Below are positions 3,307-10,114 of a stretch of 10,114 bases of DNA, piece by piece; position 1 is the stretch's first letter; the number at the start of each line of letters is the position of its first letter. Position numbers and translations under genes: made by a program. The DNA comes from a virus. Below the pieces are notes generated by a model. The model saw nothing but the letters and a program-made list of their open reading frames with translations. It searched no databases and had not been told where the DNA came from. The stretch is taken from UHGV virus genome UHGV-0885813. One strand, 5' to 3'.

Positions 3307-3507
3307 ATGCAACACGAACTACAGCCTGATTCACTGGTTGATTTGAAATTCATCATGGCCGATACTGGCTTCGGTAAAACCTTCATCTACGACCGGATTA
3401 AGTCCGGCGACCTGCCAAAAGCCAAAGTTATCCACGGACGAGCAAGATGGTTATATCGTGACCATTGTGAATTCAAAAATAAGCTCTTAAGCCGCGCTAA
3501 TGGGTAA
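3307..3507 (+). CDS. torI: AlpA/Xis-family recombination directionality factor (excisionase), TorI-like
   Basis: 66 aa. Central ...MADTGFGKTFIYDRIKSGDLPKAKVIHGRARWLYRD... fits the AlpA/Vis/TorI winged-helix family. It lies immediately upstream of the attP core and the integrase, and length and sequence match my recollection of E. coli KplE1 TorI. GGAG at 3293-3296. Confidence 0.75.
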   Translation: MQHELQPDSLVDLKFIMADTGFGKTFIYDRIKSGDLPKAKVIHGRARWLYRDHCEFKNKLLSRANG

Positions 3508-3580: not shown

Positions 3581-3595
3581 CTGCAGGGGACACCA
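3581..3595. other. attP core: 15-nt identity to the 3' end of tRNA-Arg(CCU) argW (CTGCAGGGGACACCA)
   Basis: Matches the T-stem 3' half, acceptor 3' strand, discriminator and CCA of argW as I recall it. Lies between the excisionase and the integrase, as expected for an argW-integrating element. Confidence 0.6.
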
Positions 3596-3690
3596 TTTAT
3601 CAGTTCGCCCCCATCCGTACCAGTCCGCAAAATCCCCTGAATATCAAGCCTTCCGTAGATTCACGGTTCGTCATGGTTCGCGTCAGATCG

Positions 3691-3720
3691 TTGACAGCCG
3701 CACTCCATGACGGGTAAAAA
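3691..3720 (+). promoter_or_regulatory. putative sigma70 promoter of the integrase gene overlapping GGGTAAAA repeats
   Basis: TTGACA at 3691-3696, 18-bp spacer, TAAAAA at 3715-3720. Overlapped or flanked by GGGTAAAAA (3712-3720), TTTTACCC x2 (3734-3756) and tandem TCAYGGTTCG x2 (3661-3680). Confidence 0.4.
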
Positions 3721-3756
3721 GTGGATAAAATAATTTTACCCACCGGATTTTTACCC
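3712..3756 (+). repeat. GGGTAAAA / TTTTACCC inverted-repeat cluster at the int 5' end (candidate arm-type sites)
   Basis: GGGTAAAAA at 3712-3720; TTTTACCC at 3734-3741 and 3749-3756. Same 8-mer as the direct repeats at 3502-3522. Confidence 0.4.
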
Positions 3757-4914
3757 ATGCTCACCGTTAAGCAGATTGAAGCAGCAAAGCCGAAAGAAAA
3801 ACCATACCGCCTTCTCGATGGTAATGGCCTGTACCTTTATGTCCCTGTATCAGGGAAAAAGGTATGGCAGCTTCGCTACAAGATTGACGGTAAGGAGAAA
3901 ATCCTGACTGTCGGAAAATATCCGCTTATGACTTTGCAGGAAGCAAGGGATAAGGCATGGACTGCGAGGAAAGACATCTCGGTTGGCATCGATCCGGTAA
4001 AGGCGAAAAAGGCTTCGTCTAACAACAATTCCTTTAGTGCGATTTACAAGGAATGGTACGAGCACAAGAAGCAAGTCTGGTCAGTAGGCTATGCAAACGA
4101 ACTTGCCAAAATGTTTGATGACGACATTTTACCCATCATCGGCGGTCTTGAGATTCAGGATATTGAGCCGATGCAACTGTTGGAAGTAATCCGCAGATTT
4201 GAAGATCGCGGTGCAATGGAGCGAGCCAACAAAGCACGCAGAAGATGCGGCGAGGTTTTCCGTTACGCTATTGTCACCGGAAGGGCTAAATATAACCCGG
4301 CACCTGACCTTGCAGACGCCATGAAGGGATACCGCAAGAAGAACTTCCCGTTTCTTCCTGCAGACCAGATCCCGGCATTCAACAAAGCACTGGCAACATT
4401 TTCAGGAAGTATCGTATCGCTCATTGCGACCAAAGTTTTACGCTACACAGCCCTAAGAACGAAAGAGCTTCGTTCCATGCTATGGAAGAACGTCGATTTT
4501 GAAAACAGGATTATCACCATCGACGCCAGTGTGATGAAGGGACGCAAAATTCATGTGGTCCCGATGTCAGACCAGGTGGTTGAACTTCTCACTACGCTAA
4601 GCTCCATCACCAAACCAGTATCAGAGTTTGTTTTTGCCGGGCGCAACGATAAGAAGAAGCCAATCTGCGAGAACGCGGTTCTACTTGTGATCAAACAAAT
4701 CGGCTATGAGGGTCTGGAAAGCGGTCACGGATTCAGGCATGAATTCAGCACGATTATGAACGAGCACGAATGGCCTGCTGACGCTATTGAAGTGCAACTG
4801 GCACATGCCAACGGCGGATCTGTGCGTGGAATTTACAACCATGCTCAGTATCTCGATAAGCGCAGAGAAATGATGCAGTGGTGGGCGGACTGGCTTGATG
4901 AAAAGGTGGCTTAA
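3757..4914 (+). CDS. intS: P4-family tyrosine integrase, IntS-like (argW-specific)
   Basis: 385 aa from the ATG at 3757 (MLTVKQIEAAKPKEKPYRLLDGNGLYL...). Shares P4/CP4-57 integrase hallmarks (..KQIEAAKPK.., C-terminal ..MMQWWADWLD..). The ORF track's GTG at 3721 is an alternative start but falls inside the promoter/repeat region. Confidence 0.9.
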   Translation: MLTVKQIEAAKPKEKPYRLLDGNGLYLYVPVSGKKVWQLRYKIDGKEKILTVGKYPLMTLQEARDKAWTARKDISVGIDPVKAKKASSNNNSFSAIYKEWYEHKKQVWSVGYANELAKMFDDDILPIIGGLEIQDIEPMQLLEVIRRFEDRGAMERANKARRRCGEVFRYAIVTGRAKYNPAPDLADAMKGYRKKNFPFLPADQIPAFNKALATFSGSIVSLIATKVLRYTALRTKELRSMLWKNVDFENRIITIDASVMKGRKIHVVPMSDQVVELLTTLSSITKPVSEFVFAGRNDKKKPICENAVLLVIKQIGYEGLESGHGFRHEFSTIMNEHEWPADAIEVQLAHANGGSVRGIYNHAQYLDKRREMMQWWADWLDEKVA

Positions 4915-5166
4915 TGCCATCTCACATAGTCCTTACATCATTGGTAGCATGATTAATGAAATGCGCAACCATACCAGGCACTTCTACCCATTCAATGGTG
5001 GCGCCAGCCCAATTATTGCTCCACAATTAAGAACATCATCGCCTTACTATGCTTCAGCAACGCTTGCATAAAAAAAAGTAATGTCTCTATCATCTTTTAC
5101 CAGTGTGACATAATTACATCAAAACTAAATGTATATACATTACACCATAACAAGGAATGGCATTAA

Positions 5167-5194
5167 TTACATGTTTACATTAGTATGCTAAAAT
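5167..5194 (+). promoter_or_regulatory. possible promoter for the acyltransferase gene
   Basis: TTACAT at 5167-5172, 16-bp spacer, TAAAAT at 5189-5194, about 30 nt upstream of the ATG at 5226. The region is AT-rich, so hexamer matches are easy to find by chance. Confidence 0.25.
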
Positions 5195-5225
5195 GCTGTT
5201 TTTTTTAGTTTGATAGGCTGATGCA

Positions 5226-6215
5226 ATGAACAGAAATGCCGGAATGGATGCTCTTAGAATCATAAGTTGCTTTATGGTTGTTTGTATACATACATGCCTG
5301 AATTATAAATATGGTCAAGATTCTCTCAACAACCTTCTCGCATTATTTGGTCAATCTTTATTCAGAATTGGACTCCCTGTTTTTTTTATTCTTAGCGGTT
5401 ATTTCATACTTAATTCAAGAGTTGACTTTACCGCAAGTTCTTTTTTCAAAAGAATAAAGAAAATTGCCATCCCTTTTATTTTTTATAGCATAGCCCACTG
5501 GTTTATAATAAATAAAGGAATGACAGTAAGTTTTTCTGGAGTGGCGGAATATATCAATGCTTTAACAGTAAGAAATTCAATATCTATACATTTTTAGTTC
5601 GTTTACTCACTAATTGGGATATATATATTCGCACAACCAATAAATTATCTTTTAAAAGATATTTCTATTAATGGTTCATTTTTTGGATTAATCATAATAG
5701 CTTTTTTGTTTCTATATAATGGTGACCTGCCTTCTATTGGTAATGTCTTACCTGTTTCAAGCGTCGATAAGTGGACTGCTTACTTTGTTGCAGGAGGTTT
5801 TCTTGCAAGGATAAAAGACAAAATATCCATTAATCAAGCTATTATATTAACACTAATTGGATACACATCCATTGTGTTTATTTCTGTTTACAATAGCAAG
5901 AACAATCATCCAATGCCATACGACTTCAGCATTAGTATGTTTGTTGCTTGTTGTGGAGTTGTCCTGCTATTTTCAAAATTACATATCAAAAACAGCAAAT
6001 TATTAAGCAATCTTTCAGAATCTACGTACGGGGCATACCTAATACACATTTGTATTTTAAAGTTATTATCTCCATTTTACTTTACTCACATTCATAAGCC
6101 CGGCGTAATAAATTATTTTTTTACCACATTTATTTTAGCGGTGTTTGTTTTTACAGTTTCTATAACCATATCATTGATGTTGTTACCTATATTTAAAAAT
6201 CGATATTTGAAATAG
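5226..6215 (+). pseudogene. oac: Oac-like O-antigen acyltransferase (acyltransferase-3 family) interrupted by an in-frame amber codon at 5595-5597
   Basis: Track ORFs 5226-5597 and 5706-6215 are in the same frame, and everything between them is open except the TAG at 5595-5597. The joined product (about 329 aa) is a multi-pass membrane protein with N-terminal ..DALRIISCFMVVCIHT.. and FFILSGYF motifs typical of Acyl_transf_3 (Oac/OafA). The TAG falls where the family has a conserved Trp (H-F/L-W-F). Markedly AT-rich by eye compared with int. Confidence 0.75.
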
Positions 6216-6304
6216 GACCTAATTAGCAGCAATGGAATCCTGTTGTTGTATTATTCTATTACGCTTGTCATAATACCATTGTTTAAACATTGTATAGTTT
6301 AAAC

Positions 6305-6333
6305 CAAAAAATACGCCTGCTAAACAGGCGTAT
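6305..6333 (-). terminator. intrinsic terminator downstream of the tailspike; hairpin shared with the convergent oac transcript
   Basis: 9-bp stem ATACGCCTG / CAGGCGTAT with a 5-nt loop at 6311-6333. On the - strand it is followed by TTTTTT (complement of the A-run at 6305-6310). Sits 7 nt past the tailspike stop. Confidence 0.6.
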
Positions 6334-6339
6334 TGCAGG

Positions 6340-8232
6340 CTAGGTGTTAGTGATTTTCTTCCATGCAGATGCTGTAGTACCAGTTGCTTTATACCACTCA
6401 AACTGACCAGCAGTCGTGTCAAGATATTCTTCTCCAATATATCTTGGAACTACATTGTTTATTGGGTTTTGCGCCTGTTTCCTAACAAAGAAACGATCAT
6501 CCCAAAGCTTTTGTGTTTCATAGTTTAGAAATGACATTCCAGCGATGGTTAATAATGGTGATCCTGATGATTGATTTGAATTAATATACATACTAATCAC
6601 ATGCCATCCTCGTGATGCTATATGTATACGTGCCGATTTTTGCGTATCATACGATGAGTTTCTATCTATTGAAAGTGTATTATCTTTAACATTTAAGTTT
6701 AATGTTGCCGATGGTTTTGATGTGATATCACCATTAATAATTTCAACAACTCTATCATCAAGAGAATATTGTGATTGAGGAAGTCCAAAATCAAGCTCTA
6801 TAGATAAAGCTGAATTTGCCACAATAATGCTTGGGGTGAAAATAAGATCATCCTCATCAGCGTAGAAGCATATAAACACTTTATTTCCATACTGGCTTGT
6901 TTCAACAACATAACCACCAGTGTAACTTGCTAACGGCGGGCTAACCATTGATGGTTTATTTAACTGAGTTCCCCATGCCCCATCCTTTAGCTTCATAGAT
7001 GTTTCGAAAGTTCTTACATTAATATTTGTTCCTGATTTAACTTTCGTTGGGTTATTAAATTTAGAAAGTAGAAATGCAAAAACTTTTGCCGCAAGGTATT
7101 TATAACCCTCTTCACGAAAATGAACATTATCACTAAATCTTGTTGAGTCAATACCGTAAAAAACTTCTACACCGTCAAGAACTGGTATTCCGTATTGTTC
7201 GCCAATATTAAAAACAGCTTCTCTATAAGCATCAAGAAGCCTTACATTTGCACCATATTGTTTCTGTGGAGGTGGAGTTATCAAAATTACAGCAGCCCCC
7301 TTCACAAGTTCTCTCGCAATTATTTTCTTATAATAAAAAATATAGTCTGATATTGACTGGTAAGGGCTGAATCCCTGTGCAGCATCATTTGTTCCGTACA
7401 TGATAATAGTTAAATCACTATTAACATTTACATCCCAATCACCCCACCCTAATTTAGTATTATCACCTGAATAGCCTTGGTTAATAACATTAATGGATGA
7501 TGAAAATGCTTGCTGAAGATAGCCTTGCAACGCCTGAGGGTAAGTTGTTGCTGCCCTTGTTTTATTATGAACACGACCTGATGCTGTAGGAGTTGTATCT
7601 GGTGGAGTCGGTGCAACTGTAGTGTCTTCTCCATATGTCAGGGAATCACCTCGGCAAACGATGGTTATCGCGTCTGAATCACGTGCTACCTTTTCTGCAT
7701 ACTTGCTAAGATTTAGTCTTTGTAGAGCGTGTAATTGTTTCCCTAGTATTATTTGCGATCCAATATCGACAGAGTCATCTGAAAGCGCGAGGTTCATAGC
7801 TTTGTCGGCAACATCAACAGAGTTTGCAATATCTTTTGCATGCTTACCTGCAATGATAACTTCGCTACCTTCTTGCGCTAATCTTTGCTCAAATTGGTCT
7901 GGATCGTACTTCAGCACATTAGGAAAATAGAACTGCTGCACACCGTACGCATCATAAACAGCCATAGAATGGCCTTGCACAGTTACGAACTTGGCAATCT
8001 GTCCGTTATATACCGGATATCCAGCGGCGTTAATGATGATTGGTTGCGAAACAGGAACGTGAGAGCCGTCTTCGTTCTCCACATAAACCTGAATCCGGTT
8101 TTCAGGATTTACCGGGTCAGTGTCAATTTTACCGATATAAATTTTGCCATTGGCTACGGCTTTAAAAGAACGCGCCATAGTGAAGAGTTGCGAAGGCATT
8201 CCAATAACAGCATTTGGGGTGATTTCCGACAT
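6340..8232 (-). CDS. tailspike protein: P22/Sf6-type head-binding N-terminus, central SGNH/GDSL hydrolase domain, uncharacterised C-terminal domain
   Basis: From the internal ATG (plus-strand 8230-8232, preceded by AGGA): [69 protein letters not shown] closely matches the P22 gp9 / Sf6 head-binding domain. Downstream are all four SGNH blocks in order: GDSLTYG (Ser codon at 7642-7644), [18 protein letters not shown] (His codon at 7120-7122). 630 aa from this start. Confidence 0.85.
7066..7683 (-). other. SGNH/GDSL esterase domain within the tailspike
   Basis: Blocks I, II, III and V (GDSL, G, GxND, DxxH) span roughly residues 215-420 of the track ORF. Confidence 0.7.
7876..8232 (-). other. 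P22-like tailspike head-binding (particle-binding) domain
   Basis: About 115 aa with high similarity to the P22 gp9 N-terminus as recalled ([22 protein letters not shown]...[13 protein letters not shown]...NVLKYDPDQ). Confidence 0.75.
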
Positions 8233-8423
8233 GTGCACAATCCTATTAGATTGATTCGATAAAGAAGGGAAAGGAGTTAATGCTACAAATGACGCTATTG
8301 ATTTGAAAAATGATCTTCTGTTCATTTAAAACACACTTTAAGCATGACATTTGGTAGTAATGTAAGAAAAAATTACAATCAACTCCATAGCTATTTAATT
8401 TTTAACAGTAATTCACATCTGCA

Positions 8424-10114
8424 TTACCCTGACAACGCATCAGACTTAACGCCTTGGGTCAGCGCGTTAATTGCCTTTTGTGCCTGACGCAAGGCTTTCT
8501 CAAACGCTGTTGATCCGCGTGGGGTATTTGCCATCCGGAGCATTGCATTTCTGAATGGCTCGCTCTCATAGGCTCGAGTAAGAAGTCCGTAGCTTACTGC
8601 TGCGCCAGTTGTCGCCGGGTTCATTGCTGTCCCATATCCGATAATGAACGGGATGGTTTGCTGCCCTGTTGGTGTTGTTACTGCCGCTTTTGCAGCCTGC
8701 TGCGTGGATTGCAGGTAGTTTTTCAATCCTTTCAGATAAGCGGCTTCCTGACCTTTAAATGTGATGCCAGTCTGATTTTGCAGAATGTTAAGCTGTCGAA
8801 GGAACTGGTCAGGGGATCCGCCAGATTTCTCCATCGCCTTTCCAATGATGCCATTGCGCATTTGCGCCCTGCCAACACGACCAACTGAGTTATACAGAGT
8901 CTTAATTTCCGATTTGTTCTTGCTGAATAGCATGTTGTTGACAACTTCCGGCGTCAGGTCGCCTTTCATGAGAACATTCTTCAGCCTGGTATTCTTTAGT
9001 TTCGCCGCTTCGTCAGCGTAGACGGCATTGGCCTGCTGATATTTACGAAGAGTATCATTGCCAAGATTCTGACCAATGGCACCATTGATATCGTCGGTCA
9101 TCGCCTTGTAAACTCGCTGAATGGCAGCATCGGAACGGTTTGGTAACACTGGTCGCTCACCCTTCACGTCCATTCTGAACTGGCTGCGCAGATCGCTTAA
9201 TTGCTTCAAATCCAGATTTACCGGACCATCAGGACCAGCATTGCGAACAAGCTCATCACGATAGGACTGAAGTTTTGAAATAGTCTCGTTATCAGCAACC
9301 TTACCAAGCTTCTGCAGGTTAGATATTTCTGTATCAATCTGCTGAATTGCTCCAGCAGGCTGAATGTTTACTCCGGCCATAGCATTCTGAACCTGCTCCA
9401 GTCGATTACCGGCGGCACGACGAATTCCTGATGTTTTCGCTTTAAGGCTGTCAATAACAACCGCTGGATCATACTCACCGAATTTATCGGCAAATCTCTG
9501 CACCAACTGGCTTCTCGCTTCCTGTTGCGTTGCTCTCATTCCGCTTGTGCCAGCCAGAGGGATATTTTCTGCTGTAGTCTGCGCCATTTTTCCGACGCGG
9601 GAAGTAGGCGGTAACAGGTCTGTGGTGTGCAGAGGAACTCCTTCACGCTCTGCAAATCTGATAGCCTGCTGCGCTTCTGGTGCAATAGCACCACGAACGC
9701 CACGATAAGCAGCACCTAATCCACGTCCGGCAGCGTTAATAGCGCCGCCAGCCAGAACGCCAATGCCTAAATCGGTAGCGAGTGCTTCCGCATCATCTTT
9801 CGCACTATTTGCAGCAAGTGACCCGACTGCGTTTTCAGCGAGAAGGCGAGTTGCACCCTGAGCGATTCTACCAGCGAGTGTTGGTGCCTGTGTTGCCGCT
9901 CTCTCAATGCCAGCAGGAGTGAGGTAAGGCAATGCCTCAGCAAATACCCTGCCCTCTGTAGTTTGTGGAGTCAGCGCGCCTTGCTGAAGGCCAAAGTCCT
10001 GCTCTAATCCATGCGTTGTTACTCGTGGCGTTGGGTGATATGTCCCATCGCCAATTCCGAGTTTACCGCCAGCCCAAGCCGCCGCGCTTGTTACAGCATC
10101 GGCAACTGATGCAG
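8424..10114 (-). CDS. DNA-ejection/transfer protein, gp16-like; 5' end lies beyond the window
   Basis: I translated 9933-10114 on the - strand and found the frame open to the window edge with no start codon, so the 502-aa track ORF is a truncation. Gly/Ala/Gln-rich composition and position immediately upstream of the tailspike fit P22 gp16 / Sf6 ejection protein; the assignment is by synteny and composition, not a verified alignment. Confidence 0.65.
   Translation of the reverse strand, partial: ASVADAVTSAAAWAGGKLGIGDGTYHPTPRVTTHGLEQDFGLQQGALTPQTTEGRVFAEALPYLTPAGIERAATQAPTLAGRIAQGATRLLAENAVGSLAANSAKDDAEALATDLGIGVLAGGAINAAGRGLGAAYRGVRGAIAPEAQQAIRFAEREGVPLHTTDLLPPTSRVGKMAQTTAENIPLAGTSGMRATQQEARSQLVQRFADKFGEYDPAVVIDSLKAKTSGIRRAAGNRLEQVQNAMAGVNIQPAGAIQQIDTEISNLQKLGKVADNETISKLQSYRDELVRNAGPDGPVNLDLKQLSDLRSQFRMDVKGERPVLPNRSDAAIQRVYKAMTDDINGAIGQNLGNDTLRKYQQANAVYADEAAKLKNTRLKNVLMKGDLTPEVVNNMLFSKNKSEIKTLYNSVGRVGRAQMRNGIIGKAMEKSGGSPDQFLRQLNILQNQTGITFKGQEAAYLKGLKNYLQSTQQAAKAAVTTPTGQQTIPFIIGYGTAMNPATTGAAVSYGLLTRAYESEPFRNAMLRMANTPRGSTAFEKALRQAQKAINALTQGVKSDALSG

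Follow-up and report, generated by a model that had tools for sequence, protein, structure and literature searches.

A tailspike gene joining a P22-type head-binding domain to a predicted SGNH esterase in a P22/Sf6-like phage genome

The tailspike gene and its domains

The 10,114-nucleotide stretch of virus genome UHGV-0885813 analysed here (the window) belongs to a P22/Sf6-like (Lederbergvirus) genome and carries a tailspike gene at positions 6340 to 8232. The first-pass annotation, which was made from the sequence alone, had these coordinates exactly, and the strand was corrected to minus: a plus-strand reading of the interval gave only stops and was rejected. On the minus strand the gene runs from an ATG at 8232-8230 to a stop at 6342-6340 and encodes a product of 630 amino acids. 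The features of the gene and its immediate flanks are as follows.

8241..8244, minus strand: ribosome-binding site AGGA, 8 nt 5' of the tailspike ATG (direct sequence reading)
6340..8232, minus strand: tailspike gene, 630 codons plus stop (open reading frame [ORF] list and translation)
7894..8232, minus strand: P22-type head-binding (virion anchor) domain, residues 1-113 (Pfam PF09008, PDB sequence matches, Foldseek)
7779..7893, minus strand: linker or neck, residues 114-151, third mosaic segment between two DNA breakpoints (megablast limits, low AlphaFold2 confidence)
7060..7674, minus strand: SGNH/GDSL esterase domain, residues ~187-391 (Pfam, AlphaFold2, alignment to 9lna/9d80, Foldseek)
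7630..7650, minus strand: block I, GDSLTYG, residues 195-201, predicted nucleophile Ser197 (motif reading, homologue alignment)
7459..7476, minus strand: block II, GYSGDN, residues 253-258, predicted oxyanion-hole Gly256 (motif reading, homologue alignment)
7381..7398, minus strand: block III, YGTNDA, residues 279-284, with Asn282 (motif reading, homologue alignment)
7120..7131, minus strand: block V, DNVH, residues 368-371, with Asp368 and His371 (motif reading, homologue alignment)
6493..7059, minus strand: predicted beta-sandwich, a jelly-roll resembling CBM6, CBM36 and galactose-binding domains, residues ~392-580 (AlphaFold2 domain model, Foldseek)
6343..6492, minus strand: small C-terminal beta module, residues ~581-630 (homologue sequences; AlphaFold2 strands at residues 583-627)
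6310..6334, minus strand: terminator-like hairpin and T-run directly after the tailspike stop, with an 11-bp stem, AATACGCCTGTTTAGCAGGCGTATT then TTTTGG

An in-frame ATG at 8325 would extend the protein by a 31-residue leader (MNRRSFFKS..., positions 8233-8325, minus strand) with a twin-arginine, Tat-like look. It was rejected as the tailspike start, as it lacks a Shine-Dalgarno sequence, the leader has no Pfam match and homology runs from MSEI onward. The gene calls on the related contigs L003, L008 and L009, all of 630 amino acids, also speak against the longer start. The intergenic interval 8233-8428 is not common to the related phages 683R2 and HF4s, and the leader may be a remnant of another gene. 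The tailspike ORF itself was intact in four independent samples. The copy on the Escherichia coli contig L003 differs from the window gene at 4 nt and encodes P0001, an E. coli protein annotated "phage tailspike protein" and reported to be 100% identical to the window spike or within a couple of residues of it.

The N-terminal domain was readily recognized as a virion anchor. The Pfam profile Head_binding (PF09008) was matched over positions 1-113 of 113 (E = 5.5e-64), and a sequence search of the PDB with the same region retrieved Sf6 gp14 (E = 6e-65) as well as chains of P22 gp9. Identity was 91% to Sf6 gp14 (Foldseek, 7sg7) and ~68-70% to P22 gp9. The alignment to both head-binding domains proposed by the first-pass annotation was therefore obtained, and its description of the N terminus as near-identical to P22/Sf6 holds for Sf6 and is looser for P22. 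Sequence likeness to these spikes stops at YDPDQF, at residue ~114. The receptor-binding part of the Sf6 and P22 spikes is a trimeric beta-helix glycosidase; the window spike shares with them the head-binding domain, the gene position and the phage type but not this distal part. No beta-helix, pectate-lyase or glycosidase signature was found in the window spike by Pfam, PHROG or Foldseek of the C-terminal model, and where P22, Sf6 and HK620 have a trimeric beta-helix receptor-binding domain, the model has an SGNH domain followed by a jelly-roll.

Evidence for the SGNH/GDSL hydrolase came from several directions. Lipase_GDSL_2 (PF13472) matched residues 195-378 (E = 6e-19; 69.6 bits, cut-off 32.9), and Lipase_GDSL (PF00657) matched residues 191-383 (E = 1.1e-9; 39.2 bits, cut-off 23.6). 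The four motifs from which all catalytic blocks had initially been judged intact were each present. Among 44 aligned homologues, D283 and H371 were invariant, while G195, D196, S197, G256, N282 and D368 were conserved in at least 90%. Blocks I, II, III and V, together with an unusual TRAxxxYP insert between blocks I and II, aligned with the Shigella phage proteins 9lna and 9d80, and phmmer matched esterase tail proteins of the Moo19/B2/SFP21A type with E values of 7e-15 to 7e-13.

An AlphaFold2 model of the monomer, built on the 44-homologue alignment, had a mean predicted local distance difference test score (pLDDT) of 82.7, with the anchor, the SGNH domain and the C-terminal part all confident. 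Residues 189-389 were modelled as alternating strands and helices (pLDDT mostly 85-97), giving a three-layer alpha/beta/alpha flavodoxin-like fold by both AlphaFold2 and Foldseek. The profile search and the structure prediction that had been suggested as checks thus yielded a significant SGNH match and a confident alpha/beta SGNH fold, respectively. The best Foldseek match in the PDB was B2 gp48 (9d84; E = 1e-23, 595 columns), followed by SFP21A gp09 (9lna; E = 5e-21) and Moo19 gp82 (9d81; E = 6e-19), the top three alignments covering 430-595 columns. After these esterase tail proteins came the Sf6/P22 head-binding domains and then ordinary SGNH esterases (TesA, Axe2, 1yzf and CE2 esterases), with target-normalised template modelling scores of 0.6-0.8.

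The C-terminal 240 residues, including the small beta module, gave no Pfam or NCBIfam match, and the NCBIfam search returned no name for the whole spike. Although this part had been called ~240 residues of unknown fold, AlphaFold2 and Foldseek instead predicted a CBM6/CBM36-like jelly-roll followed by the small beta module. Modelled alone, the region had a pLDDT of 82.3 and contained a jelly-roll of ~190 residues, whose Foldseek neighbours at E ~1e-4 were CBM6, CBM36, CBM61, Cry-toxin domain III and MAM domains, as well as the Klebsiella phage fibre or tailspike proteins 7xyc and 8iq9. Residues ~392-580 are thus probably a carbohydrate-binding domain, as judged from the model. The C-terminal module carries a motif of ~45 residues that includes WKxIT. 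The motif is single in the window spike, but a second, tandem copy occurs in several E. coli, Vibrio and Aeromonas homologues (among them P0005, P0025, P0028 and P0034). The module may be a trimerisation or glycan-binding unit.

Mosaic origin and distribution of the esterase cassette

The tailspike gene is a mosaic of at least three segments: the anchor (residues 1 to ~117), the neck (118-151) and an esterase cassette (152 to ~617). The first breakpoint emerged when 5,426 complete E. coli genomes were searched with megablast: the 5' end of the gene was matched in 1,132 of them, with all matches stopping at window position ~7877-7892 (residue ~114-118). The rest of the tailspike, i.e., the esterase cassette, was found in none of the 5,426. 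The second junction, at residues ~151/152, was evident from the gene for P0009 (L004), to which the window gene is 97.0% identical at the nucleotide level over positions 6380-7778 only. P0009 and its relatives are 750-residue E. coli prophage spikes with 94-95% amino acid identity to the window spike over residues ~130-630. These epsilon15/phiV10-type (Uetakevirus-like) spikes (P0006-P0016) have the same esterase cassette but, unlike the window spike, a phiV10-like N-terminal anchor with PF18668 (Tail_spike_N), and they lie in another prophage backbone. The last 13 codons of the window gene differ again.

Base composition also changed along the gene. The anchor had a GC content of 0.448 and a third-position GC content (GC3) of 0.451, residues 114-190 had values of 0.411 and 0.299, the SGNH domain 0.383 and 0.220, and the C terminus 0.354 and 0.242. 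The impression gained by eye in the first-pass annotation that the head-binding part is more GC-rich than the rest was borne out (0.448 versus 0.354-0.411). Its proposal of a recombination junction around residues 150-215 was right as to the recombination mosaic, but that range catches only the junction at ~151/152 and misses the one at ~114-118.

Because of the 97% nucleotide identity to a spike with a phiV10-like N terminus and the existence of 705 related clusters, the SGNH and beta-sandwich cassette appears to be a mobile receptor-binding module gained by recombination. The 705 clusters, defined at 50% identity, were obtained with residues 152-630; 153 of them matched at E ≤ 1e-30, and these usually span both the SGNH domain and the beta-sandwich. 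Outside the Enterobacteriaceae, the nearest relatives of the cassette were Vibrio and Aeromonas phage tail proteins with 48-55% identity. The gene is a further clear example of how receptor-binding cassettes pass from one podovirus anchor to an unrelated one, of P22 type and epsilon15 type, here with both DNA breakpoints mapped.

The combination of a P22-type anchor with an SGNH domain is uncommon but established. PF09008 and PF13472 were combined in many other clusters, from E. coli, Salmonella, Cronobacter, Citrobacter, Yersinia and Pectobacterium, and prophage proteins of this architecture were also found in Pantoea; among 113 surveyed head-binding-domain loci, an SGNH-type receptor-binding domain was present in ~3%. 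The closest parallel in architecture is g341c (c341, NC_013059), a Lederbergvirus, whose spike has Head_binding at residues 1-115 and Lipase_GDSL_2 at 187-361. As in the window, its gene is placed after gp16; it is followed by an opposite-strand gene with the annotation O-antigen acetylase. The g341c spike differs in having only ~33% identity in the SGNH region, a length of 792 rather than 630 amino acids and another C-terminal part, and the host of g341c is Salmonella Anatum. PHROG 19528, which holds the g341c spike and prophage relatives, aligned to residues 1-406 of the window spike. In the literature searched, no experimental work on the g341c tailspike was found. With g341c and many prophages already showing Head_binding and SGNH tailspikes, the novelty implied by the first-pass annotation was not upheld. 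Nor is current understanding changed, since esterase tailspikes (G7C, Moo19/B2 and epsilon15) are documented as well.

A separate and fairly common class of E. coli P22-like spikes (~634 amino acids; P0061-P0080, loci L052/L053) was also observed, in which the head-binding domain is joined to PF03629 (SASA, sialate O-acetylesterase-like).

Predicted function and competing explanations

The best matches to the SGNH domain and the beta domain that follows it were the Shigella phage proteins Moo19 gp82 (9d80/9d81), B2 gp48/49 (9d84) and SFP21A gp09 (9lna). They are much longer than the window spike and have other virion anchors, Moo19 and B2 being N4-like Schitoviridae, and they share with it 26-29% of residues in the SGNH domain and 16-17% of those in the structural alignment. 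Esterase activity on 4-nitrophenyl acetate has been shown for Moo19 gp82 and for the B2 gp48/49 complex, and the two phages depend on O-acetylated O-antigen, failing on a gtr-minus strain of Shigella flexneri from which oacD, a GlcNAc O-acetyltransferase gene, is missing too (PMC11654681). A functional analogue is G7C gp63.1 (4QNL), a tailspike with an SGNH esterase and a galactose-binding-like domain, which deacetylates the E. coli 4s O-antigen without cutting it; infection requires this activity, and mutants lacking the acetylation resist the phage (PMC10743462). In epsilon15 gp20, an SGNH "petal" domain removes acetyl from O-antigen galactose, besides an endorhamnosidase activity (bioRxiv 10.64898/2026.07.31.742079).

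From these comparisons, the protein is quite likely the single tailspike of a temperate P22/Sf6-like E. coli podovirus, with an esterase distal part that would bind and deacetylate an O-acetylated surface polysaccharide. Binding and de-O-acetylation of a host surface polysaccharide appears to be the most likely function because of the homology to the Moo19/B2/SFP21A proteins and the analogy to G7C gp63.1 and epsilon15 gp20. The earlier reading of the spike as a receptor-modifying rather than a receptor-cleaving esterase gained support in silico, both from its esterase-tail relatives and from the lack of any beta-helix, glycosidase or lyase signature. As for the substrate, the best guess is the O-acetylated O-antigen of a rare E. 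coli serotype, because the cassette is absent from the 5,426 complete E. coli genomes and because O-antigen specificity is typical of P22-like and epsilon15-like prophage spikes (PMC10408124). The absence from these genomes would fit a serotype-restricted rather than a conserved receptor.

A mechanism can be proposed on this basis. As in the Sf6 and P22 spikes, residues 1-113 would hold a trimer on the tail hub, with the SGNH domain, beta-sandwich and C-terminal module taking the place of the beta-helix endoglycosidase. The spike would bind an O-acetylated surface polysaccharide, most likely O-antigen, and a Ser197-His371-Asp368 triad, assisted by Gly256 and Asn282 as the oxyanion hole, would remove its O-acetyl groups and leave the glycan backbone intact. 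Through repeated cycles of binding and deacetylation the virion would then reach the outer membrane, a route already proposed for G7C gp63.1 and Moo19/B2. What the analysis shows directly is the domain layout, the intact catalytic residues, the predicted fold, the homology to spikes with measured esterase activity and the mosaic junctions; that the spike forms a trimer, is active as an enzyme, acts on the substrate named and takes part in adsorption is inferred from these.

Several points weigh against this interpretation. The relatives with biochemical data are all at most 50% identical to the window spike, and the substrate is not readable from the sequence. The model is of a monomer only, with low confidence over residues 108-149. 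Alignment with the G7C esterase tailspike, another check that had been suggested, gave no significant similarity to gp63.1 (BLASTP E ≥ 0.4), and 4QNL lay outside the 50 best Foldseek matches. Because the similarity to G7C fails, the mechanistic analogy rests on the Moo19/B2/SFP21A proteins, at ~16-17% identity over the structural alignment and ~28% in the SGNH domain. The mechanism would also require a P22-type virion to reach the membrane without cutting O-antigen.

Membership of the window spike in the G7C gp63.1 family was considered and rejected. The best BLASTP E value was 0.40, G7C was absent from the tblastn matches of the spike, and PF21562, PF21988 and PF22245 were absent at Pfam E ≤ 1. 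The same three families do match both G7C gp63.1, whose Pfam layout is Tail_spike_N, Gp63_3rd_G7C, Lipase_GDSL, G7C_GBD and G7C_C, and the E. coli spike P0081; a true G7C-type module is present on other E. coli P22-like spikes (P0081, L014 and L050).

The alternative that survives best, although it is unlikely, keeps the same enzyme and changes the receptor to a capsular K-antigen, colanic acid, enterobacterial common antigen or another exopolysaccharide. The sequence does not tell these candidate substrates apart, and capsule-acting esterase spikes are known from the Acinetobacter phage Aristophanes and from Klebsiella prophage SGNH proteins. The best-scoring PHROG match, phrog_8280, is annotated as colanic-acid degradation, but it covers only anchor residues 1-134. 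The typical O-antigen specificity of such prophage spikes argues for O-antigen instead, as do the nearest characterised relatives, which act on O-antigen, and the Oac-type O-antigen conversion genes in the adjoining slot. The rarity of the cassette in E. coli argues in particular against the conserved targets, enterobacterial common antigen and colanic acid.

It is very unlikely that the SGNH domain is only an accessory and that the C-terminal part also cleaves glycan through an unrecognised active site. Such a pairing of activities occurs in epsilon15 gp20, and the 240 C-terminal residues carry no family assignment. The glycosidase of epsilon15, however, sits in a trimeric beta-helix, of which the window spike has none; its whole distal part comprises only ~480 residues, and the predicted C-terminal jelly-roll resembles non-catalytic carbohydrate-binding modules. 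Also very unlikely is a catalytically dead SGNH domain, a lipase or peptidoglycan O-acetylesterase, or a non-functional prophage relic, as might be suggested by the "lipase/acylhydrolase" wording of the Pfam family names and by the adjoining acyltransferase gene, which is interrupted in the window copy, since all catalytic residues are intact and conserved in the 44 homologues, the ORF is maintained across samples with few differences from L003, L003 has a complete P22-like structural operon, and the distal position in a tailspike would expose the domain to surface glycans, not peptidoglycan.

If the spike is a deacetylase as proposed, it would offer a compact (630-residue), single-spike, temperate system for asking whether deacetylation alone gets a P22-like virion across the O-antigen layer, and once its substrate is known, the cassette might find use as a probe for particular serotypes or as a reagent for removing O-acetyl groups.

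Phage context and neighbouring transferase genes

The window aligned to Shigella phage Sf6 over 49% of its length at 95.7% identity, and large parts also aligned to HK620, IME10 and HF4s. Its gene order is early-left genes with an excisionase, integrase (plus strand), Acyl_transf_3 (plus), tailspike (minus) and a gp16-type gene (minus). The neighbours of the tailspike gene are as follows.

3721..4914, plus strand: IntS-type tyrosine integrase (Pfam Phage_integrase, Phage_int_M, Arm-DNA-bind_3)
5226..6215, plus strand: Acyl_transf_3 gene, an Oac-like membrane O-acyltransferase of 329 codons, convergent to the tailspike gene (Pfam PF01757 on both halves)
8424..10114, minus strand: P22 gp16-type DNA-transfer (ejection) gene, upstream of the tailspike gene and cut by the window end (open translation, homology)

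The gp16-type gene was 95% identical at the nucleotide level to phage DNA annotated "DNA transfer protein", and its counterpart in L003 matches PF26808. A shorter gp16 ORF at 8424-9932 was dismissed as an artefact of the ORF lister, the frame being open to the window edge. The tailspike gene thus follows the gp16-type gene, at the end of a P22-like late operon. The same arrangement was seen on L003, where a 99.1%-identical copy of window positions 3581-10114 lies downstream of a complete P22-like structural operon, with coat, gp4, gp10, gp7, gp20 and gp16 upstream of the spike gene.

The L003 prophage copy adjoins the yfdC/mlaA side of the chromosome. Identity to it ends at window position ~3581, between the excisionase (3307-3507) and the integrase, with host genes beyond. 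Because the identity stops there and yfdC and mlaA lie beyond, the window appears to hold the phage (attP-joined) arrangement rather than an integrated one; attP would then lie upstream of int, as it does in Sf6/CPS-53-type elements. ARAGORN found no tRNA or tRNA fragment in the window.

The Acyl_transf_3 gene has a GC content of 0.30. In the window it is broken by an in-frame TAG at 5595-5597, where L003 and L009 have TGG (Trp124), so the TAG is either a fresh pseudogene mutation or a sequencing error. A tblastn search of the phage collection found almost no phage relatives of this acyltransferase. In other prophages (L008, at 6197-6733, and L055), a spike 98% identical to that of the window is followed by a hexapeptide-repeat acetyltransferase instead. 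Downstream of the SGNH spikes of g341c, Yersinia, Cronobacter and Pantoea the neighbour is an Acyl_transf_3 gene, which in g341c combines Acyl_transf_3 with SGNH. Transferase genes of such unrelated families often adjoin esterase-type P22-like spikes (L008, L055, L007, L012, L015 and L033).

The frequency of such neighbours was compared among 89 receptor-binding-domain clusters, drawn from the 113 surveyed loci and from directed loci. An acyl- or acetyltransferase neighbour was present in 4/6 SGNH-type clusters versus 18/71 clusters of other types (Fisher p = 0.052), the esterase loci not being independently sampled. When the SASA esterase type (L052/L053), whose only neighbour is an integrase, was added to the esterase group, the contrast weakened to 4/7 versus 18/70. 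The enrichment of transferases next to esterase spikes is suggestive only.

An unlikely reading is that a deacetylase tailspike and the adjoining acyl- or acetyltransferase gene form a functional write/erase pair acting on the same surface glycan; the pairing recurs with unrelated transferase families (window/L003/L009; L008/L055; g341c; Yersinia, Cronobacter and Pantoea). If so, acetylation of the host polysaccharide by the prophage would shut out competitors or label hosts, and the eraser would travel on the virions of the same phage. It would also follow that a P22-type virion could get through the O-antigen layer with the glycan uncut, which would provide a direct test of "pull, not cut" entry by podoviruses.

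A free-standing SGNH gene was observed in the related Lederbergvirus vB_EcoP-683R2 (L002:2127-2663). It encodes 178 amino acids, matches Lipase_GDSL_2 with E = 1e-21 and occupies the conversion-gene slot that separates the integrase and tailspike genes, and its product could be a lysogenic-conversion deacetylase.

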